From assembly GCA_965233585.1 (NCBI GenBank), contig CBDDTI010000030.1, positions 1 to 38,079 on the forward strand: a stretch of 38,079 bases of DNA. Direction: 5' to 3'. Position 1 is the stretch's first letter, and each line of letters opens with the position of its first letter. The position numbers and the translations under genes were made by a program. Below, in pieces: positions 5,953-35,453 of the stretch. Source of the DNA: a bacterium. GTDB taxonomy: Bacteria; SAR324; NAC60-12. The notes beneath the pieces are model-generated. The model saw only the letters and a list, made by a program, of their open reading frames with translations. It was not told where the DNA came from and ran no database searches.

Positions 5953-6780
5953 ATGTCTAATTCACCAAATGATTCAAACAACCCTCGCCAAGTTTTTCTT
6001 GGCCCTGCAGGGTTAAGAATAAGATTTCATCTAAGAAACGCTGATGATTTAACATCACCGCCATCTCCACCGGTTGTGCCAATTGGACGAGGTCGAGGGG
6101 ATTTAAGGTCAAATGATGGCCCAAGTTCCTCTCTTCCTGCTCGCGGTGTTGGTCGAGGCCAGACAACATCTTCCTCGTTTAATCAACGGGGTCGAGTATC
6201 TGAACCGATAGTTGTAAACCCCGAAGGATTTGGAGTTATGGTTCAAATCAATAACAATCCAGTCGATGATTTAACATCGACCAATAACTCCGCCGATGAT
6301 TTAACATCGCCATCATCAAACAACGCTGTCGATGATTCAACATCGAGTTCCATGTCTCAAAGAATTTTTGCTGAGCGCAACACCTCAAACACTTCGGTCG
6401 TTGGTCGTGGTGTTGGTCGGGGACAAAATATTTATCGCCCCTTCAATCAAACGACTTCACCCTCGATTGGACGAGAGGTCAGACGTGGTGTTGGTAGGGC
6501 CGGAAGATATTCTTCTCCTTATCAACGTCCAAATCGATCAGCAGAAGAAATACAAGAGGAAAATTATTTCCCCACACCTTCAAATTTAGAAAGATCGAGT
6601 GACGGTCGTTTAGCCTCTTTTATTCTCGATTTAATCGATGCTGAAGGAGGCTCACCTTATGATTTGTTCAATCGTTATGCTGAGTACGTATTGCGTCAAC
6701 GCATTCAAATGCTTGAGCGTGAACGCGAACGCTTACGTGCTCAATATCAAAGATTATTGCGTCATTTTAGACAAGAATGA
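5953..6780 (+). CDS. Disordered RG-rich protein with C-terminal coiled coil (275 aa)
   Basis: Repeated GRG/RGVGR motifs and ADDLTSP repeats; ERERERLR coil; upstream TATAAAAA at 5857. Confidence 0.75.
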   Translation: MSNSPNDSNNPRQVFLGPAGLRIRFHLRNADDLTSPPSPPVVPIGRGRGDLRSNDGPSSSLPARGVGRGQTTSSSFNQRGRVSEPIVVNPEGFGVMVQINNNPVDDLTSTNNSADDLTSPSSNNAVDDSTSSSMSQRIFAERNTSNTSVVGRGVGRGQNIYRPFNQTTSPSIGREVRRGVGRAGRYSSPYQRPNRSAEEIQEENYFPTPSNLERSSDGRLASFILDLIDAEGGSPYDLFNRYAEYVLRQRIQMLERERERLRAQYQRLLRHFRQE

Positions 6781-6895
6781 TTTGTATTAAGTAATTTGTT
6801 TATATTTTGTCTGAGCTATATAGTTTTAATGTGTTTGTATATATTATTTCCAAAATTCATGCGTCAATAAATTTTGTTTCAGAATTTTAACAGAA

Positions 6896-7651
6896 ATGTC
6901 AAAATCCTACGTCTGCCGTGAATGTCAAAAATCGTTTGCTAGAAAATCTTCCCGAGACAAACATGAATCGTTTCGTCATCGTGAAACATCGTCAAAATTC
7001 CAAAATCGGACTCCATTAAATCAATCGCTTCAGTGCCCGTTTTGTAAGAATGAATTAAGTTCCTTTAAATCAAGAAAAGATTTGGTCTCTCACATTGATT
7101 CCTCTCATTTAGAAGATTTAAATTATTCTCTTTTTAAATCTGCTTTGAACGGTAAAATTAAAATTTTTCGGAAACATATATTTTCTACAGAAACGCTTCA
7201 CGCCTTTGTTGTTAATAGAGCAAATAGACAAGAAATTGTTGATGTTATTCGTCATGAATTGAGTAAAACCTTTACAGTAAAAGTTGCTTTAATTTTATCA
7301 GCGGCGTATCAAATTCCTGATTTAAATTCAGCTACAAAAGACACTGAGACGGAAGCCGCTGTTGATAATACTTCAACACAGCCTCAAACGGTTGTTAGCA
7401 ACATTGATAATTCAACTGAAAAAAGTCTTGATCAGTCGTCACATGAATTAATGCCTAGCGATCGAGATGTCTTTGCTTTAAGAACCGGCTATATTCAATT
7501 TACGTCTTTTGATTCTTCTCGCTCGTTAAAAGGTAAAGTTCAAAAATTATTAAACAATTTAATAAGTCGAGAAGAGGATTTGTTGATGAGAGGTTCCGGT
7601 TGGAGATTTGAATCTCTGTCTTTTAGCGACATCCAAATTACCAATATTTGA
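6896..7651 (+). CDS. C2H2 zinc-finger protein equivalent to the N-terminal (putative terminal-protein) region of Polinton PolB
   Basis: CRECQKSF..H..H and CPFC..H...H fingers. Ends with the GSGW motif that normally lies within the N-terminal part of Maverick PolB. Confidence 0.75.
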   Translation: MSKSYVCRECQKSFARKSSRDKHESFRHRETSSKFQNRTPLNQSLQCPFCKNELSSFKSRKDLVSHIDSSHLEDLNYSLFKSALNGKIKIFRKHIFSTETLHAFVVNRANRQEIVDVIRHELSKTFTVKVALILSAAYQIPDLNSATKDTETEAAVDNTSTQPQTVVSNIDNSTEKSLDQSSHELMPSDRDVFALRTGYIQFTSFDSSRSLKGKVQKLLNNLISREEDLLMRGSGWRFESLSFSDIQITNI

Positions 7652-7701
7652 TTTAAAGGACTTATTTTGTTGTATATAAAAAATTCAAGTAAGCTTTGGA
7701 A

Positions 7702-10700
7702 ATGGATTTTATAGAAATTCCGCGAAATTTAAAAAGATCTAACTGCTTGGAATGGAATACTCGATATGATAAATTCAACTTTCTTTATCTGTACATTAGA
7801 CATCTTTTTCCAGAAACTGCTTCCATTACAGATTTTCGTCAAATACCAGTAAAATATCTTAAAAAATTTAACATAAAAGGTTTTACGTTTCCTCTTCAAT
7901 TTTGTGATATAAAAAAATTTTTGTATAGAAATCGTCATTTACCAATTTCAATTTCCGTACTTTATGAAAGTGAAGGTCACGTTTCAAAGTTAGGGTTTAT
8001 TACTAACAAAAACAACGATAGGAGAGAAAATACTCTACATTTGTTAATGATAAAACACGATCCTAAAATCTCTTCCGATAAAATTTCTAGTAATTCCCGT
8101 CCCAAAAAATCGAGTTTTCCTTCCAAGTTTCCTAAAAAAATTAAAGATTTAAATCAACAGCATCATTTCTTTAAAATTACAAAACTCCAAGGTTTTTTGA
8201 ATAATCGGGCCGGACTGTTGTCGATTAACAAAGCGGGTCAACAGAAGTACATCCACTGTGAAAAATGTCTGCTGCGTTTTCGATCAAAATCCAAGAAAGA
8301 AAAGCATGAGCGGATTTGCTACGATAAGCAACGCACCATTTATCCCGGCAAAAATGCTGCTATAAGTTTTTCTAACCACAAACATAAGTTTAAAGCGCCT
8401 GTTGTGGGATTTTGTGATTTTGAAAGTGTACTTCAAAGAAACAAGGAACGATCTAAATGTCAACTTTGTTCTAAATTGGAATGCTTATGTGCTTTTCCCA
8501 CAAGTGACGATATAAATGTGCATAGACCGGTAGGCTACAGCCTGATTTTTGTGGACTCTGAAAATGAAGTATTCTTTCAAGAAGAATATTTAGGAGAGGA
8601 TGCAGCTAAACGTTTTTTGGATCGGATACCTCTCTACGAAAAAGTTGTTGAAGAAAGAAAACAAAAATTTAGAGATGTTCTCAAAACTCAAGCTACCCAG
8701 GAGGAATGGCAAATGTTTCGAAAAGCAACCGTTTGTCATATATGCGGTCTTCGATTTGCTACCCATCCTAAAAAGTATAGAAAGGTTTTGGATCACGATC
8801 ATGTCACAGGAAAAATAATGGGTGCGGCTCATTCGCTGTGCAATTTGACAAGATCCGGACCCTATCATACGCCAATTTTTTTTCACAATGCTCAAGGGTA
8901 AAATTTTTTATTTATTTTATTTTTTGCAATTAATTTTACAAATTAAACGTTTCAGATATGATTTGCATCTGATCATAGAAGAGTTAAACATTCGCCGATT
9001 TAAAAGAATGCCGGAAGTCTTGGCTAGAAACAGCGAGAAATTCCGCACTCTTACATTAGGCAGATTTAAAATTCAGGATTCATTAGAGCACATATCTGCC
9101 AGCTTAGACGCTCTTGTCCAAGATTTAAATCAAACTTCAAACTTTTCTTTCCCTATTTTACAACAAATGGAAAGATTCAAAAAAATTCCTATCCGTCAAA
9201 AATCAAAAGCTTTTAAACTTTTAAAAAGAAAAGGCATTTTTTGTTACGAGCATTTTCAATCATTACAAGAAATGAAAAAGAGTCGAAATCTCCCAACCAA
9301 AGATGCTTTTTATTCTGAATTAAATGAAGAACACATCTCAGAAACGGATTATTCTCATGCGCAAGAAGTCTTCAAACTGTTCAAGTGCAAGAATGTGGCG
9401 GATTACATGATGCTTTATTGTTCTTTGGATGTTATCCTGCTATGTGAAGCGTTTCTTCAATACAGAAAAATGGTTATGGAACATTTTCAATTGGATCCAA
9501 TCTATTACTTAGGTAAATTTCTTTTCTGTTGCTTGACATATAAAGTTTAAATATGAAATTTATTTCGTTTAATTTAGGAATTCCTGGACTAAGTTTTGAT
9601 GTTATGCTTATGTTCTATCAAAATTCTGAACGAGCTACAACAACAAAAGATAACCTCGCGGGTGAATCTTCCAAACCTCCAGGATCTCTGGATATCTATT
9701 CCGATCCTGAAATGGAGCACTTTTTCACAAAGGGTATCAGAGGCGGACAAAGCTTTATCTCTCAGCGTTATGCAAAAGGAAACAGCAATCCGAGAAAAAG
9801 CGGCGATCATTTACTTTACATTGACGGTAATTTTATACTGCATCGTTTGATTAATCTATTTATTTTAAATCAGTGACTTTTTAGCAAACAACTTGTACGG
9901 GAGCATGGAAACTTTAAAATTGCCAGTTTCTGATTTCGAGTGGGTTGCAAAAAAAGATCTTGAAAAATGGACTGCCAAAGATATTATCAAGATTCCTTCT
10001 CAAGACGAGACCGGGTACGCATTCGAAGTTGATTTGCATTATCCTCCTCATCTTCACCCGGTAAATCTGATCTTTTTAACACGTTTTGCATTTTGATAAA
10101 CGGTAAAATATTTACAGAAACATGATCAATTTCCGCTGGCTCCGTATACAGACACGGTTTCTTACAAACATCTGTCTCCTTATAATCGTCGTTTACTAAA
10201 ACATCTTAACCCTCGAGATTATAAGAACAAAAGATACCGAAGCAAGAAACTGTTGAGCACTTTTTATGATCGAAAAAAGTACGTGGTGCATCTGGAAAAT
10301 CTACAATATTATTTGAAAAAAGGCATGAAACTGTTGAGGATAAGAAGAGCTGTGAAGTTTCGGCAAAAAGCTTTTTTAAAAGAGTTTATTGAAAAAGTCA
10401 CGATGCTACGATCAAACGCTCGCAACGATTTTGAACTTCGGCTTTTTAAGCTTTTTGCCAACTCTACTTTTGGAAAGTTTATCGGTAAGTAAATATCCGG
10501 ATTTAGAATCTTTTTTGTATTTTTATATTTGCACAAGCGTGTGGTGGTACTGCCAATATTTAGTGCAAAATGTATTGGCAGTACACACCACACGCTCATC
10601 CGCATCTTCAATGTCGTTGTCGGGGGGCGCGTGAATCTCAGCCTCCACGGTGATGACCTCCCCGTCAAATTCCGCCATCCGGTTTTCCGCCGCCCGGATT

Positions 10701-12616
10701 TTGGCCAGACGGACAATTTCCGTTGCCCGACGTCTGGCGGCAAAAGATCTGTCGTCAGCGGGGATTCTGATGGGGATGGGGGCCTCGATGGGGTTGTCAG
10801 CGGGAATCTCAATGGGAAACTCGATAAACGCCTCGGTGGGCGCCTCGGTGGGGACGTTGGAGGAAATTTCGTTGGTGGGGGCCTCGATGAGCATCTCGAT
10901 GGGGGACTCGGTGGGAGCTTCGATGAGCGCCTCGGTGGGGACGGGGACCTCAATTAGCACCTCGGTGGGGATGTTGGAGGAAATTTCGTTGGTGGGGGCC
11001 TCGATGAGCATTTCGATGGGGAATTCGGTGGGAGCTTCGATAAGCGCCTCTGTGGGAACGTTAGAGGAAATTTCGGTGGTGGGGACCTCGATGAGCATTT
11101 CGATGAGGGATTCGGTGGGAGCTTCGATAAGCGCCTCGGTGGGAACGTTAGAGGGAATTTCGGTGGTGGGGACCTCGATGAGCATTTCGGTGGGAGCTTC
11201 GATAAGCGCCTCGGTGGGAACGTTAGAGGGAATTTCGGCGGTGGGGACCTCAATGAGCGTCTCGATGGGGGACTCTGTGGGGACGTTGGTGGGGAGATCG
11301 ACAAGAATGTCGGTGGGGACGTCAAATTCAATAAAATTTTCGTTTTGAAGGCCTCGGACAGCGCGACCGCTGCCGCCTCCGCCACCGCCAGCGCCAGCGC
11401 CGCTGCCCTCTCTGTTGACGGCAAGCACAGCAACGCCAACAGAGAGGGCAACGGCAGCGGCGCTGGCGGTGGCGGAGGCGGCAGCAGGCGGCGAAGCATC
11501 AAAAATGTCGGCCACGGCCGACCGGATCCGCCGGATCAGGCCCGGTCTCCGGTTCTTTTTCTCCTCCTTCTCCTCCTTCAGCAGCCACTGCTCGTCGTCG
11601 TCCTCCTCATCCTTCAACCTCATGTACCCCCTCTTCATCATCATCATCATCATCATCACTGTCCTCTTTCTTTTTTGTTTTGAAAGTTTGTTTTGAAAAT
11701 TGCAACATGGTTTTAGGAAGTTTTTAAAAAATAAATCTCCAAACTCCCACACACTTTATAATGAATTTTTATAAAAATGTTGTATTCTTTATAAAATATT
11801 TATTTAATTTTATATTTTTCAGAAAATGTTCGAAATTACATCGAAGTGGTGCTTTGTGGAGATGAAAAAAGCTTGAGAAAAGCCAGTCTTGGTCAACACA
11901 TCAACAATTTTCAAATTATTAATGAGAATTTGGTGGCTGTCAACAAGAAGCCGGCAATGATAGAGCTTAGAAAGCCTTTAGCCGTCGGATTTTCCATTCT
12001 GGAGTTGTCTAAGTTGTTCATGTACAGATCATACTATGACACCATTCAAAAACATTTCGGCAAAGACAATGTGTCTTTGTGTTTTTCGGACACAGATTCT
12101 TTTCTTTTAAAAGTTACATGTAACAATTTGGAAAGGGAAATGAAGAGATTGAAACACATGTTTGATTTTTCAAAGTACCCTAAACAACATCCACTTTTTG
12201 ACAACAGTAAAGCCAATCAACTTTTTTATTTCAAAGATGAATTAAAAGGTAGAGCGGCTATTACTGATTTTATAGGCTTACGTCCAAAATGTTATTCTAT
12301 GAAAATAGTTGATTTTTTGGACAAAAACAAAATTGATGAGAAAAAAGTATGCAAAGGTTTAAAAAAATCTAGCATAAAAAAGCAATTAACTTATGCAGAT
12401 TACAAAAAGTGCTTAAAACAAACTGTTGTAATTTACAAATCTTTTAAAAATTTAAGATCAAAGAATCACAAAATCCGAACGTGTTTTCAAAGAAAAATTG
12501 CGTTGTCGGCAATGGATTCAAAAAGATATGTTTTAAATTGTGGATGTCACACTTTATCGCTAGGAAATTGCCTTATTGTTAACAACAAAATGTCTAAATG
12601 CCAAATTTGTAAATAA
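7702..12616 (+). CDS. polB: Protein-primed family B DNA polymerase, 6 exons, ~1112 aa
   Basis: Exons 7702-8897, 8956-9512, 9578-9826, 9885-10060, 10118-10484 and 11823-12616. Splicing restores ExoII HNAQGYDLH, motif A YIDANNLYG, HDQFPLAP and motif B KLFANSTFGKFIENVR. ExoI CDFES, motif C SDTDS and an EndoVII/HNH-like insert (CHICG..DHDHVTG..AHSLCN) are present. Confidence 0.93.
10523..11656 (-). CDS. Nested antisense ORF in PolB intron 5: ~377 aa with a hydrophobic segment and Pro/Thr/Glu/Ile tetrapeptide repeats
   Basis: One open frame spans the GC-rich intron interior from an (ATG)7 run. Repeat length variants keep the frame. TATAAA lies ~100 nt upstream on the minus strand. Confidence 0.6.
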   Translation of the reverse strand: MMMMMMMKRGYMRLKDEEDDDEQWLLKEEKEEKKNRRPGLIRRIRSAVADIFDASPPAAASATASAAAVALSVGVAVLAVNREGSGAGAGGGGGGSGRAVRGLQNENFIEFDVPTDILVDLPTNVPTESPIETLIEVPTAEIPSNVPTEALIEAPTEMLIEVPTTEIPSNVPTEALIEAPTESLIEMLIEVPTTEISSNVPTEALIEAPTEFPIEMLIEAPTNEISSNIPTEVLIEVPVPTEALIEAPTESPIEMLIEAPTNEISSNVPTEAPTEAFIEFPIEIPADNPIEAPIPIRIPADDRSFAARRRATEIVRLAKIRAAENRMAEFDGEVITVEAEIHAPPDNDIEDADERVVCTANTFCTKYWQYHHTLVQI

Positions 12617-12673
12617 AAATCATTACTTTTATTTAAAAGAAAATTTTGTAGTTTCTTTTTTAAAATTAAAAAA

Positions 12674-13369
12674 ATGAATGGTTTTGATTTGAGGTTTAAT
12701 ATTCCGTCTAACATGTTGGTTGTCGGTCCAACATCAAGCGGAAAAACAACGTGGTTAAAACATTTAGTGCTTCGTCGACACGAGTATTTTGCAACTCCGC
12801 CTGAAACAATGTTGTTGTTTTACAAGGAGCCGCAAAAAGCATATCAGTACATGGAAGATGACATGAACGAGGGCAAAGGTTCTGACACGCAATTTCCGTC
12901 TTTTCGTAAATTCAAAAATATTCCAAATTCAATCGAAGAGTTGAAAGATATTTTAGAATTATATCCGAGAAAAATGCCCAAATTGATTGTTTTTGACGAT
13001 TATTTAGACGATGTTGGGCAAATATTAAAACATTTTTTTACGGTTTTGACTCATCATTACAATTGTTTTACCGTTTTTCTTTGTCAAAATTTATTTGACA
13101 AAAAAGGCGATTTACGGACATTGAGCATAAATACGCAATACATGATCCTTTTTAACAATCCACGGGACAGAAGCGCCATCACACATTTGGCAAAACAAAT
13201 TTTTCCCGGTCGTGTTGGAATTTTAAATAAGGCATATAGAGAAGCAGTTAACGGCCGAAGTCACGGATATCTTCTTCTAGATTTCCATCAACAGCAAGAC
13301 GATAAAGTCAGAATTCGAAGTAACATCTTTTCTTATGAAGGATTAATGAAAGCCTACGTTACTGTTTAA
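12674..13369 (+). CDS. FtsK/HerA-family (A32-like) genome-packaging ATPase
   Basis: Walker A GPTSSGKT, Walker B LIVFDD, and Maverick-type THHYN..FLCQNLF..RTLSINTQY..FNNPRD. Confidence 0.93.
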   Translation: MNGFDLRFNIPSNMLVVGPTSSGKTTWLKHLVLRRHEYFATPPETMLLFYKEPQKAYQYMEDDMNEGKGSDTQFPSFRKFKNIPNSIEELKDILELYPRKMPKLIVFDDYLDDVGQILKHFFTVLTHHYNCFTVFLCQNLFDKKGDLRTLSINTQYMILFNNPRDRSAITHLAKQIFPGRVGILNKAYREAVNGRSHGYLLLDFHQQQDDKVRIRSNIFSYEGLMKAYVTV

Positions 13370-13416
13370 AAAATTTCATATCTATTTAAGAAAAATTAAA
13401 AACAATTACTGTTAAA

Positions 13417-13791
13417 ATGTCAAAAAAATTAGAAAAAGCTAGTTCGCTTTTTAATGCAATAAAAAAATTAAAACATCAAGATTGCGCAAATTTTTTAAAT
13501 TATTTGGACGATCGCGGCGTTGAATTGCTTTGTCGTATTTTACACTACGTTTTGAACGGTGAATTGCCCTTACATGGCGAAGTGCGAACACGACTTCAGA
13601 AAAAAATAAGAGCTCATTTAGGGGAGTTTAGACGTCTTGCCACGCCGCCTCGTCGCTCTTCCGACATTTCAAAAAAAAGAATAATACTACAAAGGGGCGG
13701 AATTTTAGGGACTTTATCAACAATTGCCAGTATTATCGTCCCTATTTTAGCTCAAATTATTGCAAAAAAAAGCTTGCAACATCGTCGTTAA
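13417..13791 (+). CDS. Small basic virion-core-type protein with C-terminal QRGG plus hydrophobic helix
   Basis: KKRIILQRGGILGTLSTIASIIVPILAQII resembles the QxGG-hydrophobic tail of small Maverick proteins found next to the ATPase. Confidence 0.7.
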   Translation: MSKKLEKASSLFNAIKKLKHQDCANFLNYLDDRGVELLCRILHYVLNGELPLHGEVRTRLQKKIRAHLGEFRRLATPPRRSSDISKKRIILQRGGILGTLSTIASIIVPILAQIIAKKSLQHRR

Positions 13792-14658: not shown

Positions 14659-15141
14659 TCATCGTTTATTTTCAAGTTTTTTTATAAAATGAGTTACAAT
14701 TTCATCATTTTTTATTTTGGGTTTTTTTACAAATATTTTAACAAATTGTTGAGGAGACATTAAATTGTTGCCCACAGATAAACAAAAAGCGGTCACGTAC
14801 CAGCCGCAAAACAATGAATGAAAATCCTGAATGGAGTAAGACAGAATTGTTTTGAATGAGTTTTTTTCTATCCAAGGTCGTAAGAACTTCATTAAAGATC
14901 GATTCCATATCGGCGGTAAAAAACCGAATGAATCAAAATAATAGAGTTGATTTTTTCCGTTAATATACATCGCTATGAAATGTGATCCTTTTTGATTTTT
15001 TTTGGATAAGTTAGTGATTAAGCAACAAGGCAACTTAAGCGAATCAGACGGCAAATTATCGCTTGAAAAAACCCCGATGAAATATTTACATCTTGGTTGA
15101 ATATAATTGGATAAAAAGATATTTGATAATCCGTTTTCCAT
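14659..15141 (-). CDS. Adenain-like cysteine protease (capsid maturation)
   Basis: Catalytic motifs GSHF, YFDSFG and IQ....LFCG; N-terminal FIGVFSSDNLP. Confidence 0.92.
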   Translation of the reverse strand: MENGLSNIFLSNYIQPRCKYFIGVFSSDNLPSDSLKLPCCLITNLSKKNQKGSHFIAMYINGKNQLYYFDSFGFLPPIWNRSLMKFLRPWIEKNSFKTILSYSIQDFHSLFCGWYVTAFCLSVGNNLMSPQQFVKIFVKKPKIKNDEIVTHFIKKLENKR

Positions 15142-15144
15142 GAT

Positions 15145-16488
15145 TTAATTTGTTCCTTTTATAACTTGTTGGAATTGATCTATTTTGATGCCGGAGTTGA
15201 AAACAGAAAAAGCCAGGACGTATATAGGATGAGGAGTTATTACGGAAAAAGCCAGTTCTAAATCTAAATTTCCGTAATTTTCTGGATGCACGTGGAACGA
15301 ATTACATTGATCCGGTGTTAAATCGGCCGCTAGAAAAAATCTTCCTTTTAAATATTGTTCATACGTTAAACCGATGGATTGATTGCCGTGCGAAATGCCA
15401 ATACTGTCGTATAAATGCCGATACAAGTCAATGGCATCCCCCTCGTTTATATTAGGTTGAAATGGTCTGGGAAATACGCATTGACCGTTCTTTTTTAAAT
15501 TAAAAGTAGACAGATTAAAATGTTGAAAGTTGAAAGGGTTTTTGTCCGGGGCGTGTGACATGGCTTGATTGTGAACCATCACAAAAAACACTTGTTTCGG
15601 TAAAGTACCATTAGCGATATTGGCGATGTTGAAGGACGACACACCTTGAGGAATAACATAATGTCTTAAACGTGTGGCGCTAAAAGGTAGGTAGCACGGT
15701 TCTTTTAAAAGTTTGTTTTTAAAACTTTCTCTCAGCAATAATGTGGGCAACACTTTTCTCATATGTAGTTTAACATCTTTTAAAACAATTTTAAAAGGTT
15801 TTTCTGCCGCAGCATCTTGAAGCAAACCAAACTTTTCGGCGGATCTAACCAGCTTGATTTTGATATCCACATTTGGAGGTAAAAATCTGTCGGTGTCAAA
15901 CAGATCAACGGCTAAGCGCGTATTAAAATACACTTTTTTACCGTCCATAATTAACTGCTTTCTTTTATTCAAAGAAGGTGTGGCGGCTGTAACATTTATG
16001 GTATCAACTTCGTCAGCATTTTCAGGATAATACCCTTCAGCAGCCAGATAAGTTTTTTTCACCTCTGAATTGTAACTTAAGAATGATTGTATAAACATTC
16101 TCCAAGGATAAGTGACCGCTGAACTTAAATCAGCTACTTGGACCCCGTTTAAATATACTTCTACTTGGCTGAATAGACAAGCGGCAAAATGATTAGCCAG
16201 TGTGGCTTTAGTATCATTTTTTACCTGTTCACCATCGTCATTTGTCACTACAAAATAGCCGCTAAGTCTGGTTTGATTCAGTATAAAAGAGCATTCGTTA
16301 TCGCGAGGAACAAGAAATTCGACCGGTCCGGTGTTGGTGATAGAAGCCACGCTATTGTAAATAACGTGAGCTCCATCTAATAAACCCGTTTCTACTTCTA
16401 ACGGTGAGTGAAGCGCTAAACCACTTTCGGTACCGTCGTTTTGTTCAACGGCCAATCCGGCAATTCCACTTTTTTCAGGTACGCCCAT
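15145..16488 (-). CDS. Major capsid protein (double jelly-roll, Polinton PY/hexon-like), ~447 aa
   Basis: Maverick MCP-type motifs GPVEFLV, LFSQVEVYLNG, LPKQVFFVMV, NPFNFQHFNL, FFLAADLTPD and GNLDLELAF. First plausible ATG is at 16488. Confidence 0.92.
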   Translation of the reverse strand: MGVPEKSGIAGLAVEQNDGTESGLALHSPLEVETGLLDGAHVIYNSVASITNTGPVEFLVPRDNECSFILNQTRLSGYFVVTNDDGEQVKNDTKATLANHFAACLFSQVEVYLNGVQVADLSSAVTYPWRMFIQSFLSYNSEVKKTYLAAEGYYPENADEVDTINVTAATPSLNKRKQLIMDGKKVYFNTRLAVDLFDTDRFLPPNVDIKIKLVRSAEKFGLLQDAAAEKPFKIVLKDVKLHMRKVLPTLLLRESFKNKLLKEPCYLPFSATRLRHYVIPQGVSSFNIANIANGTLPKQVFFVMVHNQAMSHAPDKNPFNFQHFNLSTFNLKKNGQCVFPRPFQPNINEGDAIDLYRHLYDSIGISHGNQSIGLTYEQYLKGRFFLAADLTPDQCNSFHVHPENYGNLDLELAFSVITPHPIYVLAFSVFNSGIKIDQFQQVIKGTN

Positions 16489-16494
16489 AACAAA

Positions 16495-17037
16495 ATGGAA
16501 GTGTTGGTCAGCAATGTAAAAATTAGTTGTAAAGTTCATCTTATCAACAGCGACGAAATCTCTTTTAATACTGATAATACAATAAAACGTTATAATAATT
16601 TTGTTGTAATAAGAAAAAAATATTCCTTTATTATATTTACCAAAACAAAGCAAAATCGTCATTTTCACGTAAACATTACAAAAATCCCCTCTACAGAACA
16701 CATTGCGAAAGCATTAGACGAACTAAAATTTATTATAAGTAACGAATTTGTTGTTGAAATATTTAAAGTAGAAAACATGACGTGTTTGTATCAATCAAAA
16801 GAAGAGATTAAATTATTAAAATTATACAACCATTTAAAATCGAATAAAAATTTTGAAATTATTCTTAAGAGATATGATCCAGAAAAATTCCCAGGCGTAT
16901 TTTTAAAAATAAAAAAATGTTCAGCTTTAATATTTTCGTCAGGAAAAATAGTTATAATTGGAGCCTCCAGCGAAGAAGATGCTAAACAAGGAATAAGAAT
17001 TATTATTAAATTATTAAAAAAATATAAAATCGAATGA
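16495..17037 (+). CDS. TBP: Virus-encoded TATA-binding protein homologue (180 aa core)
   Basis: Two TBP half-repeats: VSNVKIS..NNFVVIR..FIIF and VENMTCL..YDPEKFPGVFLKI..ALIFSSGKIVIIGA, matching the TBP consensus YEPELFPGL / LIFxSGKxVxTGA. Confidence 0.85.
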   Translation: MEVLVSNVKISCKVHLINSDEISFNTDNTIKRYNNFVVIRKKYSFIIFTKTKQNRHFHVNITKIPSTEHIAKALDELKFIISNEFVVEIFKVENMTCLYQSKEEIKLLKLYNHLKSNKNFEIILKRYDPEKFPGVFLKIKKCSALIFSSGKIVIIGASSEEDAKQGIRIIIKLLKKYKIE

Positions 17038-17093: not shown

Positions 17094-17852
17094 ATGCACG
17101 AGAAAGTAGATTATACTAAAATATGCAATCATCAATATCCAGTAGAAGACACCAGGCAAGGAGACGTGGTGTGTACCGAGTGTGGATTAGTTATTGATAA
17201 AATATATTGTTATAATTTAACAAAATCAAATTTGGAAACAGAATGGGACAAAATAAAAACATTTGATAAAGAAATTAAACCAAAAAACCAGCATTTAGAG
17301 AAAGAAAAAAATATTTTAAAAATTTTATGTAATAAATTACATTTAAATAATGATGTTACAAATGTTATTTTAAATCTATGGTCAGATATAGCAGCGTGGC
17401 ATTATCAAAAAGGTGGAAAAATTAAAATGGATGCTAAAGGATTGGTGGTAATGACGTTGTATCAGGGGTTAATAAAAGAAAAAATTCCCCGCCCGATAAG
17501 TCATTTGTGTCAAGAAGTCGGCATTAATCCAAAGATAGTGTGGCGTTGGATGAAATTATACAGACGGGACTTGACTGACATGAATAAATTAGACAATTAC
17601 ATAAAGGCAAAAGATATGAAAGAATATTTTTTACAGCCGCTGCAGTTAAATTATCAAGAAATGACGTCCGTTGAACAAATATTAAAAAAAAATGAAAATA
17701 GTTCTTTTGCTCCAAGAACTTTATTAGCTGCATGCGCTTATGCCTTTTTAAAAGAATCCAAATTGAGGTATTTAAGCGTCAAAAATATGGCTCACATTTT
17801 AGGCGTCAGTGTTATGTCGTTGTACAGATGTCGTAAAAGTCTAAATCAATAA
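17094..17852 (+). CDS. TFIIB: Virus-encoded TFIIB-like general transcription factor (252 aa)
   Basis: Zinc ribbon CNH...VEDTRQGDVVCTECGLVI and two cyclin-fold repeats (LCNKLHL..LYQGLIKEKIPRPISHLC; RTLLAACAY..MAHILGVS). Confidence 0.87.
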   Translation: MHEKVDYTKICNHQYPVEDTRQGDVVCTECGLVIDKIYCYNLTKSNLETEWDKIKTFDKEIKPKNQHLEKEKNILKILCNKLHLNNDVTNVILNLWSDIAAWHYQKGGKIKMDAKGLVVMTLYQGLIKEKIPRPISHLCQEVGINPKIVWRWMKLYRRDLTDMNKLDNYIKAKDMKEYFLQPLQLNYQEMTSVEQILKKNENSSFAPRTLLAACAYAFLKESKLRYLSVKNMAHILGVSVMSLYRCRKSLNQ

Positions 17853-18263: not shown

Positions 18264-19352
18264 ATGTCGATAACAACGAAAGAGACTTTTTTAAAAGAAT
18301 ACGCGAAACCGGGTTCACCAATAGCTTTTGCGTCTCCCGCGCTAATTTATCATTATTATGGGAAAAAAATCCCTCTGACGTCAATCGAGGAGTGGCTAAA
18401 AGGAACAGACTCTTACACATTACACAAACAGGCTAAATTTCCCAGACCGAGAAATCCAACATTTGCTTATCGGAAACGGTATCAGTTTCAAATTGACCTT
18501 ATAGATTTAGGAAATTTGGCTGAACAAAATGATTCTAATAGATACCTTTTGACAGCCATCGATATTTTTACACGATTCGCCTTTGTAGAACCACTTATTA
18601 ATAAAACGGCAAAAACATTTATGGAAGGGTTTGAATCTATTATGAAAAGAGCAAAACAATTTCCGCGTAGAATTTTAGCCGATAAAGGAGCGGAAATTAA
18701 GAATAAATTATTTCAAGCCTACTGCAAAAACAATAACATTCTTTTGTTACACAGCAATAATTTTGTGCACGCCCCCTTTGTGGAAAGATTTAACCGAACT
18801 TTAAAAAACCTGTTGTTCAAATACATGACTCACGAAAATACTGACAGGTACATTGACGCGTTACCATTTCTTGTCCATACCTACAACAATCGTAAACATC
18901 GCATGATTGGAATGACACCCGCTGAAGCAGAACTCCCTGGAAAAACTTATCAAATTAGAAGAAAACAAGAATTGGTTTATTCAAAGATTAAAAGAATGAA
19001 ACCAAAATACAAAATCGGCCAAACCGTGCGTATTAGCATTATGAAGGGAAAATTTGACAGAGGATTTACACCGCAATTCAAAGAAGAAATTTTTAAAATA
19101 AAATCAATTTCTACACGTTTGCCAAAACCCACTTATGAGTTGGAGACTTTAGAACAGGATGAAACTTTGGAAGGAAATTTTTATGAGAGTGAACTTACAC
19201 CCGTAGATGAGCCAGAAGTATTTGCCATCGAAAAAATTCTTCGGACAAAAAAAGATAAAAAAACCGGAGAAAAAATGGCTTTAATAAAATGGAAAGGGTA
19301 TAAAAACCCTAGTTGGACATACGAAAAAGACATAGTTGATATGCCACAATAA
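18264..19352 (+). CDS. int: Retroviral-type (rve/c-integrase) DDE integrase with C-terminal chromodomain
   Basis: QIDL..LTAIDIFTRF, ADKGAE, VERFNRTLK; chromodomain-like IEKIL..IKWKGY..SW. Confidence 0.94.
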   Translation: MSITTKETFLKEYAKPGSPIAFASPALIYHYYGKKIPLTSIEEWLKGTDSYTLHKQAKFPRPRNPTFAYRKRYQFQIDLIDLGNLAEQNDSNRYLLTAIDIFTRFAFVEPLINKTAKTFMEGFESIMKRAKQFPRRILADKGAEIKNKLFQAYCKNNNILLLHSNNFVHAPFVERFNRTLKNLLFKYMTHENTDRYIDALPFLVHTYNNRKHRMIGMTPAEAELPGKTYQIRRKQELVYSKIKRMKPKYKIGQTVRISIMKGKFDRGFTPQFKEEIFKIKSISTRLPKPTYELETLEQDETLEGNFYESELTPVDEPEVFAIEKILRTKKDKKTGEKMALIKWKGYKNPSWTYEKDIVDMPQ

Positions 19353-23346: not shown

Positions 23347-23886
23347 GTTCTCAGAACCTTTCTTCGCGCCCCCGAACTGATTCAAGACGTGGAAAGTGGA
23401 AAAAATTGAGGTTGCAAACGGCTTGCAATCGGCTTGCAACAGGCCGATTGCAGACGAAAACAAGCCGATTACAGGCTCGATTGAGCCTGTTGCAAGCCGA
23501 TTGCAGACGAAAACAAGCCGATTACAGGCTCGATTGAGCCTGTTGCAAGCCGATTGCAGACGAAAACAAGCCGATTACAGGCTCGATTGAGGTTGTTGCA
23601 AGCCGATTGCAGACGAAAACAAGCCGATTGCAGGCTCGATTGAGGTTGTTGCAAGCCGATTGCAGACGAAAACAAGCCGGTTGCAGACGATTACAAGCCG
23701 ATTTCAGGTTGAAACAGGCTCAATGTAGATGCCAGGAAGGTGTTTTGAGAGCGCATCAAGATGGTTTTTATCGGTAAACGGATGGTTGAAAGACGGTTTC
23801 AGCCTGTTTTAAGGTGTTTTGAGAACGTTTTAAGGTGTTTTGAGAGCGTAACAAGCTTGAATGAGAGTGATGTAGGGACATTACCC
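23347..23886 (-). repeat. Right terminal inverted repeat of the Polinton
   Basis: Reverse complement of 1001-1541, ending ...GTAGGGACATTACCC. Confidence 0.95.
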
Positions 23887-24484
23887 TCATCTGCCCAAGG
23901 TTGGTGGAGGATTCTGAAACTGGCATCCACCAAGCCACCATGGCCAAGATTAAGTTGTAAGCAGAAAGGCTGGATGACTTCACCATCAAAAACTGCTTTG
24001 TTTCCCCCTTCATGGTGGCCGAAACGGAATCAAAATACAACCTTGTGGGTCTGCCTAGCATTAGTGTGTTGATAAACCGGGATGGGAGGTGTTCCAAGGC
24101 TGTGTTGGCAAGCAAGATGATGGATGACCTAGCCAAGATAGAGTGGGATCACTCAGGGGAATGGTCTGGCACCCAATAACCATCAACCCAAAAAGGTCTG
24201 AATCCAAAGGTCATTGCCAGTAATGTAATTATAGAAAGGTTGGTGTGTTCTTTGCCAGAAAATTTAATATGAGGGGAGGAAAAGAGGGAGATTAAAACAA
24301 AAAGAGGGAGATAAAAACCAAAAGAGGGAGATAAAAACTACTTTACTGTTCAGTTTTATGAATGGGTTTGCCGTGCAATAAAAACCTTCCATCATGTAAA
24401 CATGTTATTATAAATCAGGGTGGCAATAATGTGGAATAAACATTATTGCACTTTTTGCAAAATTTTGAAAAAATTTTGGTGTAA

Positions 24485-30084: not shown

Positions 30085-32741
30085 TTAGATTCTTCTGGCC
30101 ATCTTTATGGTGAACCAATAAGCAATTTCAACAGCTGAGATGAAGCTGAACCCCATGCAAAGACCAAGAAGGCCACCAAGTTGGGAGATGAAGTCGATGA
30201 TTGTCATGCGAGGTTGTCGAACATACTCAAAGGCTGTTGATGACTCAAAGAAAAAGGTCACCAGGGCAATGTCCTTTTCGTATGCATTGTGAGTCGGTTC
30301 TCTGGAATTGTCCTTCTTGAAGATGATGTCCTCTTGTTGGGTTTCTCCTTGGGTGCGTCGAATATTGGACTTGATGTCAGTAAAGGATAGGGGTAGGTCA
30401 GCCCCGTACTCTTCCTTAACACTCGCTCCCCAAACTGGAGGATTTATGATCCTCTTGCTCTCAAAGTTGCACAGTTCACTGATTCCAAAGTTCTTCCTGT
30501 CACACTTCCTGAAAGGGGCAGCTGACACAGAAGCTTCAATGAGAGTAGATGAGCAGTCTGGGAGGCAGTGAAGGCATTCAGAGTCAGGTACATCTCTGAT
30601 GTGGTCTGCAAATTCAAAGGCAACCCATGGATCACACATCTGGAGAGTGTTGTTCCTGATGGGAAAGTACCATGGGATGCAAGACCCATTCATCTTCTGA
30701 AGGCTGTAGTGAAGACTGCATTCCAACATGCAGTTAGACTGTGAGTACTTTTGGTGAAGCTCCAGCTCTTTCTCATGCTCAAAGTAACACTGCCTCTTTA
30801 CTGGGTCAATATTAGCAAGGTCCTCAGCAGATGTCACTTTAGTAGCTTTCAGTGACACCATATTTTCATGCCCTGGTCTAAGAAGCAAAGATTTCTTAAA
30901 GGTCAATGGGTATTGATTGCTGGACTCAACAATGGCAGAGAACCCTTGGACATCCTCCCTAACTGAGCTGCTAGCTACCTTTTCTGAATGAGCATCCAGG
31001 ATCACAGTTAACCCCTTGGACATTCCAGCCTGAGGCACAGGTCTCTTGCCATTCTCAAATGGATCCTCCCAGTTTGGTTTGAAATCATCAGGAAGGTCAG
31101 ATAGTTGGAAGCTGTACTTCCTGTCTCTCATTTGCATCTTGTCAATGATTCTGGTGAAGGGTCCCTCCCTGAACATGGTCTCTGCAGCTTCAAGGTTGAA
31201 GGTGCAGCACATTCCCCTGTCTGTAGGAGATGTCTTGAAGATCAAAGCACATGGTAATTCCTTACCCCTCCAGTAGCATGCTTTAAGCATTCCATGTTCC
31301 ATGTCCTTGGTTGATGTGGCTTCCTTCACATCAAAACATGGCTGCTGAGTATACCACAGCAGCTCAAACAGGCTCTCATAGCTCCCAGTCATGTTCATCT
31401 GTCTGAAGTTTTCTGAGATCTTTTGTTTTGCTTGCATGTGAAGTGCTTTGGCCTGCCTCCTCAACAGTTTATCAAAAACATAGGCAAGGGATGTTGGTTG
31501 GCTGTGTCCAGATTGCCTCTTCTCCCTTTTCTTACCTGAACCAACTGATGAGCATGCCCCCAATTTCTTGTGGCATATGTCCATGGTTTGGCCTTCAAAA
31601 TCATCCCCACATTTTGCCATTTCAAATCTAGTGTTTGTCCCATCAGGTTTGAAAGCCCTAAGGCCACAGAATGCAGTTGTATTTGGCAAGATCCCATCAG
31701 ATGAGGGGAGAGGTGGTCACTCACCTTCTCTAGAGTCTCCACAAAATAAAACTGACCTTCTGATTCAAAAGCATTCAACCAAAAACCAATGTCACCACTG
31801 CCACCAGGGTTGTCAAGGATGCCTGCAACAGTGTCAAATGTCCATAAAAAATGCCTCCTGAGAATCACCAATAACTTTACCTGGTTCACTCCCCATAAAG
31901 CTCTCAAAATCCTGAGTATAGTTACCCCCACCTCCAAAATCAATCCTTTTGCCTCCAACCTCAAGACAAGTGTCATGTTCAAAGTCCGTGAAACCTCTGG
32001 CCATGAAGCAGTGGGAGGATCCAGAAACTAGGCTTTTCCATCCAGAACCACAATCATTGTCAACATATCCATCAACATAATCATCACAAGGGTCTTGGCC
32101 TTTATTGACAGCAATCTGAAAAAAAAAATATGAAAGTCCTGTCCCATGAACACTAATTTGAAGATGTGGCTGGTTACCTCAGACTTCAATGTGGAGTCTG
32201 GATTCAATGATGCCATGGACTTGACAATCTTTTGAATAGGATCTTTTGCTCCAGGAAAAAGGTCCAATCTAAGTTGAAGAATGAGGTTGACCTTTTTCTC
32301 TAATGACACTGTGGTAATGTTCACATCTGGGTGAGAGGCTGCAACATAATCCATGAACTGCTTGTTCTCTGCCTTGTCAAGCACTTTCTGAATCCAACCT
32401 TGGCTACAAATAGTGATTGCTGGGTAGGCCAATTGACTGATTGACTTTCCTGTGGAATGGACTGATGTTATCACTGGGAAGGTCTGCCAAGCCACATATG
32501 CTTCAACAATCCAATAGATTGCCAAGGTGATGGTTGATGCAAAGACCAGAGTCCAGAGGAAGCGCTCCCACCAGATAAGCTTGACATCACAGGCATAGCT
32601 GATGCCATGTATGCTGGTGATTTCGGCAAACTCATGAAAGGTGTTGCTGATGGTCTTCTTTACATTCTTGTTGTCTACTTTGTTGGACTTTGGAGGGTAA
32701 TAAATAGCAGGTTTTGACTCTAATTGTTTGCTAGACTGCAT
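30085..32741 (-). CDS. DEG/ENaC (pickpocket-like) sodium channel
   Basis: TSIHGISY gating motif, TM1, YPAITIC, TDRGMCCTFN, Cys-rich thumb, DFISQLGGLLGLCMGFSFIS TM2. Introns 32177-32116 and 31880-31823; one apparent 1-nt frameshift near 31705. Confidence 0.9.
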
Positions 32742-34326: not shown

Positions 34327-35453
34327 TCATTCATTGTACCAGTCCAAGAACAACAGAGAAAATGACATGACCAGGAGGAAGAACAGAATGTATACCCTGA
34401 TGCTGGCGTTCCTTTGGATGGCCCGTCGAAGCTCCTCGTTGCCATCTTTGATGTTTTCAGTAGAAGCCACAGCGTGGGCAGCGATGATGTCAATGTCATC
34501 TTTCTGCTGTAGCACTTTGGATGTGAACACATCCTGGAGCTCGGCTATCTTAACAACCTTGCTCTCAATCTGTCGCACGCTGTCTTTCATCGTTATCAGA
34601 TCCTCGTACAACTTGACGTTCTCCTGCTCGAGCACCTGGACCTCTTCGGTTGAAAAGGCCTCGGGTGACACCTCATTATCATCATCTGACGAGTAGAGGT
34701 AACCCGTGCCAGAGGGAGGGGGAACAGGTGTGCTTCTGTTAAGGCTCTTCTTCTTCCTCCTCCTGTGCCGCGTGCTGGGCGAACCTTCATCATCGCCCTC
34801 GCTGCCAGTCTCTTCTTCCTCCGTGTTGGTCTTGGTCACTGTGGACCTCCTAGCTTTCACCTCCAACCTAGAGAACCTCTGCATCTCCAGCTCCTTTTCA
34901 ACTCGAATCGCCTTCTGCCTCGAGTGAATCTCGCAAACGGATCTTGAAGGAAATAAATTGTTCTTTTAAAAATGATTGCGCTATAATATCAGGAAACTAT
35001 CAAGTACCTTAAATAGTCATCTAAAATGTCCGTCACTGCCTCAAAATGTTTGATTCTCTGGCTCTTCATTCCCTTGATTTTTTCCTTTAAATCCGATTTG
35101 AATTTCGACAAAAGGGCGTTTATGGTTTTGACAAAATTTTGAGCCCCGGCGTCGATCTTGTCCCTGTCGATATCCGTGATGGCGTCGGCTAGACACTCGT
35201 TGTTCATAACATCAAGGTAAGCGTTCCGGTTTTCCCCTAAAAACTCCTTCAGGCGCGTCACATTCTCTACGATGATTCTGCCGCGGCTCTCAAAACTGTC
35301 GTCGTGTTTTCTCTTCTTGGACGTCGGGAGGATCCGATTCTTGTCAGGAACCGGGAAAAGATCCGGATGTTCACCCTCTGACGCCGAACTTTCATCAGCG
35401 TGCCTTTTCTTTGCCGCCTTAACGGCCTCTTTGAAACTAACCGTGCGATTCAT
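34327..35453 (-). CDS. STX18: Syntaxin-18 (ER Qa-SNARE), ~353 aa, two exons
   Basis: Exons 35453-35008 and 34942-34327. DRDKID, QKAIRV..SRLE, SNARE helix VRQIESKVVKIAELQ..ENIKDGNEELRRAI, and C-terminal TM ending LLFLDWY. Confidence 0.92.

Follow-up and report, generated by a model that had tools for sequence, protein, structure and literature searches.

Can a polymerase gene that appears in a virus-like element as a row of broken reading frames nevertheless be intact, its parts being joined by the splicing machinery of the host? The question is posed by a family B DNA polymerase (PolB) gene at positions 7702–12616 (+ strand) of contig CBDDTI010000030.1, assembly GCA_965233585.1, the whole 38,079-nucleotide (nt) stretch of which was analysed and is referred to here as the window. 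The gene lies in an element of about 23 kb that carries the marks of a Polinton/Maverick provirus. A first-pass annotation, made from the letters of the window, had read the fragments as an intact gene interrupted by five spliceosomal introns, and had suggested that these were gained by a nuclear virus. From comparison with paralogues and homologues, the element is very probably a young Polinton/Maverick provirus whose PolB gene is spliced at five introns of the host type; the exon-intron structure is maintained by selection and the introns would have been gained in the common ancestor of three element lineages (referred to as A, B and C).

Exons, introns and catalytic motifs

All five introns proposed by the first-pass annotation are present in the sequence, each beginning with GTAA, ending with AG and preceded by an exonic G at the donor, with phases 2, 1, 1, 0 and 1. 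With the introns removed, six exons sum to 3339 nt, or 1112 codons and a stop, with no internal stop; read without splicing, every exon frame meets a stop soon past its donor. All of the following features are on the + strand. Exon 1 (7702–8897) encodes a variable N-terminal part, the Exo I motif (FCDFES), an insert resembling Endonuclease VII/HNH nucleases and the first half of Exo II, which is cut by intron 1 (8898–8955; 58 nt, phase 2) at HNAQG/YD. The second half of Exo II and the Exo III region are in exon 2 (8956–9512), which is followed by intron 2 (9513–9577; 65 nt, phase 1). Exon 3 (9578–9826) ends in the aspartate of motif A, so that intron 3 (9827–9884; 58 nt, phase 1) splits this motif at YID/ANNLYG. 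Exon 4 (9885–10060), delimited by frame joining and alignment to homologues, precedes intron 4 (10061–10117; 57 nt, phase 0), which has an in-frame stop inside it. Exon 5 (10118–10484) ends three residues past the motif B glycine, where intron 5 (10485–11822; 1338 nt, phase 1) interrupts FGKFI/ENVR; this intron has a GTAAGT donor, a T-rich CAG acceptor and a G+C-rich interior. Motif C (SDTDS), the KxY motif, the C-terminal part and the stop codon are in exon 6 (11823–12616).

The junctions in Exo II, motif A and the flank of motif B are therefore as first described. Exo I, II and III and motifs A, B and C occur in order in the exon translations, and the motifs at the junctions fall on columns that do not vary when 15 uninterrupted homologues are aligned. 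We take the names Exo II, A, B and C to apply here as in the textbook definitions of family B polymerases.

A search with exon 6 returned 105 longer homologues, including 31 that are single open reading frames (ORFs) of at least 1100 amino acids (aa). The spliced alignment that had been proposed as a check gave homologues colinear with the window over all five junctions: when uninterrupted homologues of 1,200–1,300 aa were compared with the window by tblastn, no residue was lost or gained at any junction. In the case of the homologue P0023, residues 238–579, 572–756, 755–816, 815–988 and 989–1246 align to 7780–8919, 8954–9514, 9574–9831, 9884–10483 and 11822–12613 respectively. PF03175 is matched by four of the 15 full-length homologues (best E 5.5e-23), and the window aligns to one such homologue, P0092, at E 4e-63. 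A sequence-profile search with the homologues matched no solved polymerase structure.

The Endonuclease VII/HNH-like domain is located between Exo I and Exo II at 8695–8850 (residues 332–383; PF02945, E 1.2e-5), and Pfam finds an Endonuclease_7 insert in 11 of the 15 full-length homologues. An HNH insert is reported for nematode and oomycete pPolB2 (PMC10748475).

Selection on the copies and the type of intron

A search of this 12-Mb assembly with exon 6 gave 58 matches; the paralogous copies of the gene number about 50 and form four lineages. Lineage A is 93–100% identical to the window at the nucleotide level (11 complete copies) and lineage B about 82% (13 complete copies), while lineages C (14 copies) and D (11 loci) have about 64% and 35–42% protein identity respectively. 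Tests for selection were made on an alignment of the 24 complete A and B copies. At each of the five introns the donor GT and the acceptor AG are conserved in 24 of 24 copies, even as the lengths of the short introns drift between 57 and 67 nt (58–61 nt for intron 1). The exons have accumulated seven insertion or deletion (indel) events in 2545 nt, of which five are multiples of three and lineage-wide and two are 1-nt events in single copies. The introns hold 21 events in only 238 nt, and 17 of them are not multiples of three. Variants in public DNA runs follow a similar pattern: the listed single-base indels are in introns 2, 4 and 5 or intergenic, and the sole indel within an ORF is one of 6 nt.

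The rate of divergence in the introns is like that at third codon positions. When the window is compared with one B copy (C523), codon positions 1, 2 and 3 have diverged by 0.113, 0.078 and 0.305 and the introns by 0.336; within lineage A the corresponding values are 0.014, 0.011 and 0.097, and 0.071. Nei-Gojobori ratios of non-synonymous to synonymous divergence (dN/dS) lie between 0.05 and 0.11 both within A (dS about 0.15–0.18) and between A and B (dS 0.74–0.93). Spliced at the same sites, exons 1–5 are open in 22 of the 24 copies, both broken copies belonging to lineage B, and exon 6 is open in 23. The exon-intron structure has thus been held under strong purifying selection through diversification into at least three lineages, which argues that the spliced product would be the functional one. 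Together with the exact intron losses described below, these patterns make the reading of the first-pass annotation, an intact spliced gene and not one in decay, well supported by comparative sequence data.

The evidence fits ordinary U2-type introns. They have the GT donor, AG acceptor and pyrimidine-rich 3′ end of this class, and their interiors evolve without coding constraint while the exons are constrained, the exception being the interior of intron 5, which contains an antisense ORF. Self-splicing introns were considered and rejected, as no group I or group II model in Rfam matches the region 6500–13500 at E up to 1 and the four introns of 57–65 nt are too short for such RNAs. An origin from introners, the transposons that generate introns, is likewise not supported, since in a search of the 12-Mb bin the short introns form no repeat family and are mutually unlike: introns 2 and 3 match only PolB copies, introns 1 and 4, both A+T-rich, also give a few isolated matches on four other contigs, and similarity between introns does not extend beyond words of 11 nt or less.

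The short introns had also been said to match host introns of 58–65 nt in the window. Joining of ORFs gave two inferred host introns, one of 58 nt (31823–31880) and one of 65 nt (34943–35007), both GT-AG, in genes for an amiloride-sensitive channel (ASC) and for syntaxin-18, and the short PolB introns are similar in size to these two (n=2). A third candidate, of 67 nt, gave no clean join, and the range itself is only partly checked.

History of the introns

The best indirect support for the precise splice sites comes from lineage C. Its copies have GT..AG introns at the same five positions and in the same phases, including the intron 1 site, although the sequences of these introns are no longer alignable with their counterparts in the window. 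In subgroup C1 (10 copies) intron 2 is exactly missing, with one glycine codon in place of the split codon; in subgroup C2 (two copies) intron 4 is exactly missing, leaving K-R across the site; and in subgroup C3 (two copies) all five introns are present. Exact loss of this kind is what would be expected from recombination with reverse-transcribed spliced mRNA. None of the five introns is found in lineage D or in the uninterrupted homologues outside the assembly.

The distribution of the introns was mapped onto a tree of PolB, as had been suggested earlier. The tree was obtained by a maximum-likelihood search of the exon 4–6 region with 64 rows, after seven A and nine B near-duplicates had been dropped, and was midpoint-rooted, with only the 31 homologues of at least 1100 aa as outgroups. 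Support by the Shimodaira–Hasegawa-like approximate likelihood ratio test (SH-aLRT) is 97 for the grouping of A and B, 99 for C, 100 for A+B+C and 99 for the uninterrupted protein P0002 as sister of that clade; the 30 other uninterrupted homologues and lineage D fall outside A+B+C. The five intron positions are confined to A+B+C, a clade nested among uninterrupted homologues, and the simplest history on this tree is five gains on the A+B+C stem, after which C1 lost intron 2 and C2 lost intron 4. Since the introns are lacking in the more distant copies as well as in the closest homologues from outside, gain within the A+B+C clade is the better reading, and the gain suggested by the first-pass annotation is the better-supported polarity, with the caveat that the outgroups had been chosen as long uninterrupted ORFs.

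It is improbable, though less so than the other alternatives discussed below, that the introns instead go back to the ancestor of a wider PolB clade and disappeared on many occasions, the window being a case of retention. The choice of outgroups speaks for this, as do the fact that exact intron loss occurs in the family and the GT-AG introns of other metagenomic relatives, one of them in motif A only 5 nt away from the intron 3 site. In order to address the bias in the outgroups, 11 genomic loci (L009–L019) of a related metagenomic lineage were inspected. Four of them (L010, L014, L015 and L016) have no interruption; of the gene in L011 just the 3′ end is present, which lies downstream of both outside intron positions. 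The remainder do contain GT-AG introns: L009, L012, L013 and L019 have one of 106–230 nt at a position inside exon 2 of the window, and L017 and L018 (58–59 nt) and L019 (330 nt) have one in motif A. Introns in this polymerase family therefore extend beyond the clade of the window and are not unique to this element, in correction of the earlier annotation.

The positions are different, however. The motif A intron of L017–L019 is in phase 0 after AN, 5 nt downstream of the phase 1 site that follows the aspartate in the window, and the second outside position falls within a stretch that is intron-free in the window, so that repeated gain fits better than deep retention. Retention also has to contend with the five positions being empty in the sister P0002, in P0023 and P0028, in lineage D and in the other homologues of 1100 aa or more. 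To our knowledge, the phage and plasmid ancestors of protein-primed PolBs have no spliceosomal introns either.

Intron 5 is no ordinary long intron, a correction to the first-pass annotation, and is long because it carries an antisense ORF. Its length is 1077–1351 nt in lineage A, 1583–2322 nt in those 13 copies of lineage B where all five intervals are present (941 nt in one further B-type copy without upstream exons), 55–74 nt in lineage C and zero in D. The ORF (10523–11656, − strand; 377 aa from its first methionine) is repeat-rich and acidic/proline-rich, and has an invariant C-terminal Cys/His motif. Within both the intron and the ORF lie tandem repeats with periods of 87, 117 and 75 nt (10843–11281), whose copy number differs among paralogues, and a long G+C-rich hairpin (11364–11490) with 57-nt arms that are 88% complementary. 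The folding energy of this hairpin is −120 kcal/mol in the window and ranges from −67 to −120 kcal/mol across all 11 copies of lineage A; its matches in Rfam, which resemble microRNA precursors, are all sub-threshold.

Among the 11 A copies, the ratio of non-synonymous to synonymous polymorphism (pN/pS) of the antisense ORF is 0.18 in the C-terminal third and 0.37 in a middle stretch, compared with 1.0–2.3 in the two other frames, while the N-terminal part (0.58) gives no clear signal. The indels common to many copies are multiples of three. Lineage B has in the same intron a shorter ORF of the same build with a related C-terminus (36% identity over 36 aa, E 3e-4), and a second repeat-rich ORF. 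No Pfam family matches the antisense ORF; four public proteins (235–318 aa) match it at 51–62% identity and have in common with it an invariant 22-residue C-terminal Cys/His motif. That intron 5 is a dispersed transposon was considered and rejected, as its sequence occurs only within PolB copies of the bin. From these comparisons we conclude that a short ancestral intron probably took up an antisense gene. The ORF and the hairpin might regulate the polymerase or give rise to small RNAs.

That the antisense ORF evolves as coding sequence could also be taken to mean that the 1.3-kb gap is not spliced and that an inserted gene has split the polymerase into two polypeptides, encoded by exons 1–5 and exon 6. 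We consider this very unlikely. The first 46 codons of exon 6 precede any methionine and yet are constrained, with divergences of 0.068, 0.045 and 0.200 at the three codon positions against 0.43 in the last 41 intron bases. Adjacent to intron bases that have diverged by 43%, the donor (GTAAGT or GTGAGT) and the pyrimidine-rich CAG acceptor persist in 24 of 24 copies, and the short intron of lineage C occupies the same site (lineage D having none). The conserved splice sites, the short intron in C and the constrained codons before the first methionine together indicate that an intron persists here and that the gene has not been split.

Fission does nevertheless occur in this lineage, at the other end of the gene, which lends the two-polypeptide idea some support and corrects the earlier annotation in another respect: the N-terminal domain of the polymerase is in a separate upstream ORF with C2H2 zinc fingers (6899–7651, + strand). 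In the stop-to-stop frame that begins at 6830, residues 27–270 align to residues 3–192 of P0002 (E 5e-6) and 10–235 of P0089, and there are weak matches to zinc-finger Pfam families. As it aligns to residues 3–235 of uninterrupted homologues, the ORF represents the ancestral N-terminal domain. In lineages A, B and C the two ORFs are separated by a TGA stop, an A+T-rich spacer of 22–50 nt with 1–2-nt indels and a conserved ATG. A sixth intron joining the zinc-finger ORF to position 7702 was considered and rejected, since no GT..AG pair joins the frames, the stop and the ATG are conserved and the spacer has indels. The separation in the window, B and C results from fission of the gene and not from an intron, and the polymerase proper can reasonably be taken to begin at 7702.

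Several observations weigh against the proposal of a selected, spliced gene with gained introns. No RNA run contains 7702–12616, and splicing is therefore deduced from comparison of paralogues. Four runs from two studies, with DNA-like Logan contigs, span the introns unspliced and without joints, and are uninformative on expression. Among 5.8 billion collected proteins, none of at least 462 aa exceeds 63% identity to exon 6, and the collection thus has no entry for a spliced product derived from a transcript. PF03175 is matched by none of the single exons in an exon-wise Pfam search, and putative membership of the family rests on the homologues. The copies come from a metagenomic bin and may stem from more than one host individual or species. 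The tree is the product of a quick search, midpoint-rooted and with several long branches, and its outgroups, picked as ORFs of at least 1100 aa, are uninterrupted by selection.

The element, its host and known systems

The element extends over approximately 1001–23886 and is bounded by terminal inverted repeats (TIRs). The left TIR (1001–1541) has an arm, 1001–1489, that is 100% complementary to 23398–23886 of the right TIR (23347–23886) over 489 nt, and an extension pairing 1483–1541 with 23347–23405 at 97%. With such near-perfect TIRs the element is young. The same TIR tip is found beside differing flanks on other contigs. Several other copies terminate in a slightly different TIR tip. A 6-bp target-site duplication was not found, as the six bases outside the TIR tips differ (995–1006 and 23881–23892 were compared); the true tips may be a few bases off.

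Between the TIRs are an integrase with rve (PF00665, E 1.3e-8) and Chromo domains (18264–19349) and a packaging-ATPase-like protein whose Pfam matches (Pox_A32, FtsK) are all sub-threshold; the ORFs at 14662–16542, where candidates for the capsid, penton and protease of the Polinton set were sought with Pfam, have no match. By its termini and gene content the element can be classed as a Polinton/Maverick-type provirus. It also encodes a TBP-domain protein (16420–17034, + strand; PF00352, E 3e-19, above the cut-off) and, adjoining it, a protein with a TFIIB zinc ribbon (17094–17849, + strand; PF08271, E 1.2e-6, just below the cut-off). Basal transcription factors of its own would fit a nuclear, RNA polymerase II-dependent life style for an element of this type; among the matches listed in a literature search on TBP and TFIIB there was no mention of Polintons.

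The contig is eukaryotic, despite the bacterial label (SAR324) of its assembly. To the right of the element are the ASC gene (PF00858, E 1.5e-58), the syntaxin-18 gene and a gene for mitochondrial uS7, for which five related proteins were found, with identities of up to 59%. A protein atlas gave 'Eukaryota' only. The host is probably a metazoan eukaryote, the contig having been mis-binned into a bacterial metagenome-assembled genome. The assembly comprises 12.0 Mb in 747 contigs, with a G+C content of 30–50% in all of them and 35–45% in all but five. Many eukaryotic contigs, including at least four Polinton lineages, are present in this SAR324-labelled assembly; the bin is contaminated or chimeric, which is relevant to anyone treating it as a bacterial genome.

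The setting of the gene bears on a further alternative, that the polymerase was domesticated by the host, gained its introns after co-option and has ceased to belong to a mobile element. A domesticated gene would be expected to show strong purifying selection and introns like those of the host; however, such a gene should be single-copy and syntenic. Here it is enclosed by 489-nt identical TIRs together with the rve-Chromo integrase, the packaging-ATPase-like gene and other element genes, and at least 24 near-full copies with 82–100% identity lie on different contigs, the same TIR tip adjoining differing flanks. Domestication accordingly seems highly improbable. The least probable alternative is a decaying pseudogene in which GT..AG pairs restore the frame by chance: fragmented ORFs are usual for endogenous Polintons (96% are degraded in vertebrates, according to the accessible part of PMC8097293), but the frame, the splice dinucleotides and the codon-position pattern have been held over a dS of about 0.8, the intron positions are conserved at 64% protein identity though the intron sequences cannot be aligned, and the divergence of the copies and their different flanks speak against assembly duplicates of one locus.

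For the spliced provirus, the following course of events can be proposed. The element would be transcribed in the host nucleus, the U2-type spliceosome of the host would excise the five GT-AG introns, and the resulting mRNA would encode a polymerase of 1112 aa. The introns would have originated in the ancestor that lineages A, B and C share; two would later have been lost exactly, possibly through recombination with reverse-transcribed spliced mRNA, and intron 5 would have expanded in two lineages from about 55–75 nt to 1.1–2.3 kb by acquiring the antisense ORF.

A five-intron polymerase is unusual in an element type whose core genes are normally taken to lack introns, both in descriptions and in searches. 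Several groups of eukaryotic DNA viruses are considered to have their root in Polintons, which are regarded as ancient virus-like elements of the nucleus, and a replicase that depends on host splicing, and that has been kept over a dS above 0.8, points to a long-term nuclear, spliceosome-dependent life style. The locus offers dated examples of intron gain and exact loss in a DNA element, and of an intron in which another gene has landed. The fragmentation of PolB ORFs in elements of this type does not in itself count as evidence of decay. More tentatively, and with rather less than even confidence, we suggest that Polinton-type pPolB genes of aquatic eukaryotes may repeatedly gain spliceosomal introns, which then become lasting, selected parts of the virus-like genome. 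The grounds for this are that unrelated metagenomic relatives have introns at two or more additional positions, that exact losses resemble those through complementary DNA and that an intron can be used as a safe site for cargo. If this were true in general, surveys applying prokaryotic gene finders to endogenous viruses would score many intact elements as degraded.

In its overall build the element resembles the known Polintons/Mavericks (polintoviruses, adintoviruses) of animals: it is about 23 kb long, TIR-bounded and present in many young copies, and it encodes a protein-primed PolB, an rve integrase bearing a chromodomain, a packaging-ATPase-like protein and further virus-like ORFs. It differs in having TBP-like and TFIIB-like genes as well. 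The statement of the first-pass annotation that Polinton core genes are usually described as intronless agrees with the literature as far as the available texts go. Intact vertebrate Mavericks are reported as having ORFs free of introns, in stated agreement with Kapitonov & Jurka 2006 (PMC8097293); in nematode Mavericks the core genes are called intronless and introns are reported only for cargo genes (preprint 10.1101/2022.07.12.499685); and a large survey used a prokaryotic gene finder since endogenous viruses 'do not contain introns' (PMC10120064). In contrast to these vertebrate and nematode Mavericks, as the accessible texts present them, the window has a core polymerase gene with five introns, one of which holds another ORF. 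Among the matches listed in the literature searched, the portions of text available contained no report of spliceosomal introns inside a Polinton pPolB gene.

In adenoviruses, relatives of Polintons that also have a protein-primed PolB, the polymerase mRNA (E2B transcripts) is spliced in the nucleus, where leaders or a tiny first exon become attached to a polymerase ORF that is itself essentially free of interruptions. Unlike these, the introns in the window cut through the catalytic core.

Parallels are also offered by two other systems, as described in the accessible portions of the respective reports. In dinoflagellates, introners are found in full-length proviruses of the maverick-polinton-like kind (PMC11957031), and spliceosomal introns thus lie inside Polinton-like proviruses as they do in the window. 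Those introners are multi-copy intron-generating transposons, mostly acquired after integration, whereas the short introns of the PolB gene in the window belong to no shared family and are older than the split of three element lineages. In the chlorovirus PBCV-1, the DNA polymerase gene has an intron processed by the spliceosome (PMC7019647); as in the window, a viral family B gene contains a nuclear spliceosomal intron, which keeps its position in related viruses and is absent from others. The chlorovirus gene differs in having one intron of about 100 nt and in being the replicative PolB of a giant virus of an alga, not that of a protein-primed integrating element, and its splicing is known experimentally, while for the five PolB introns of the window splicing is proposed from sequence comparison.

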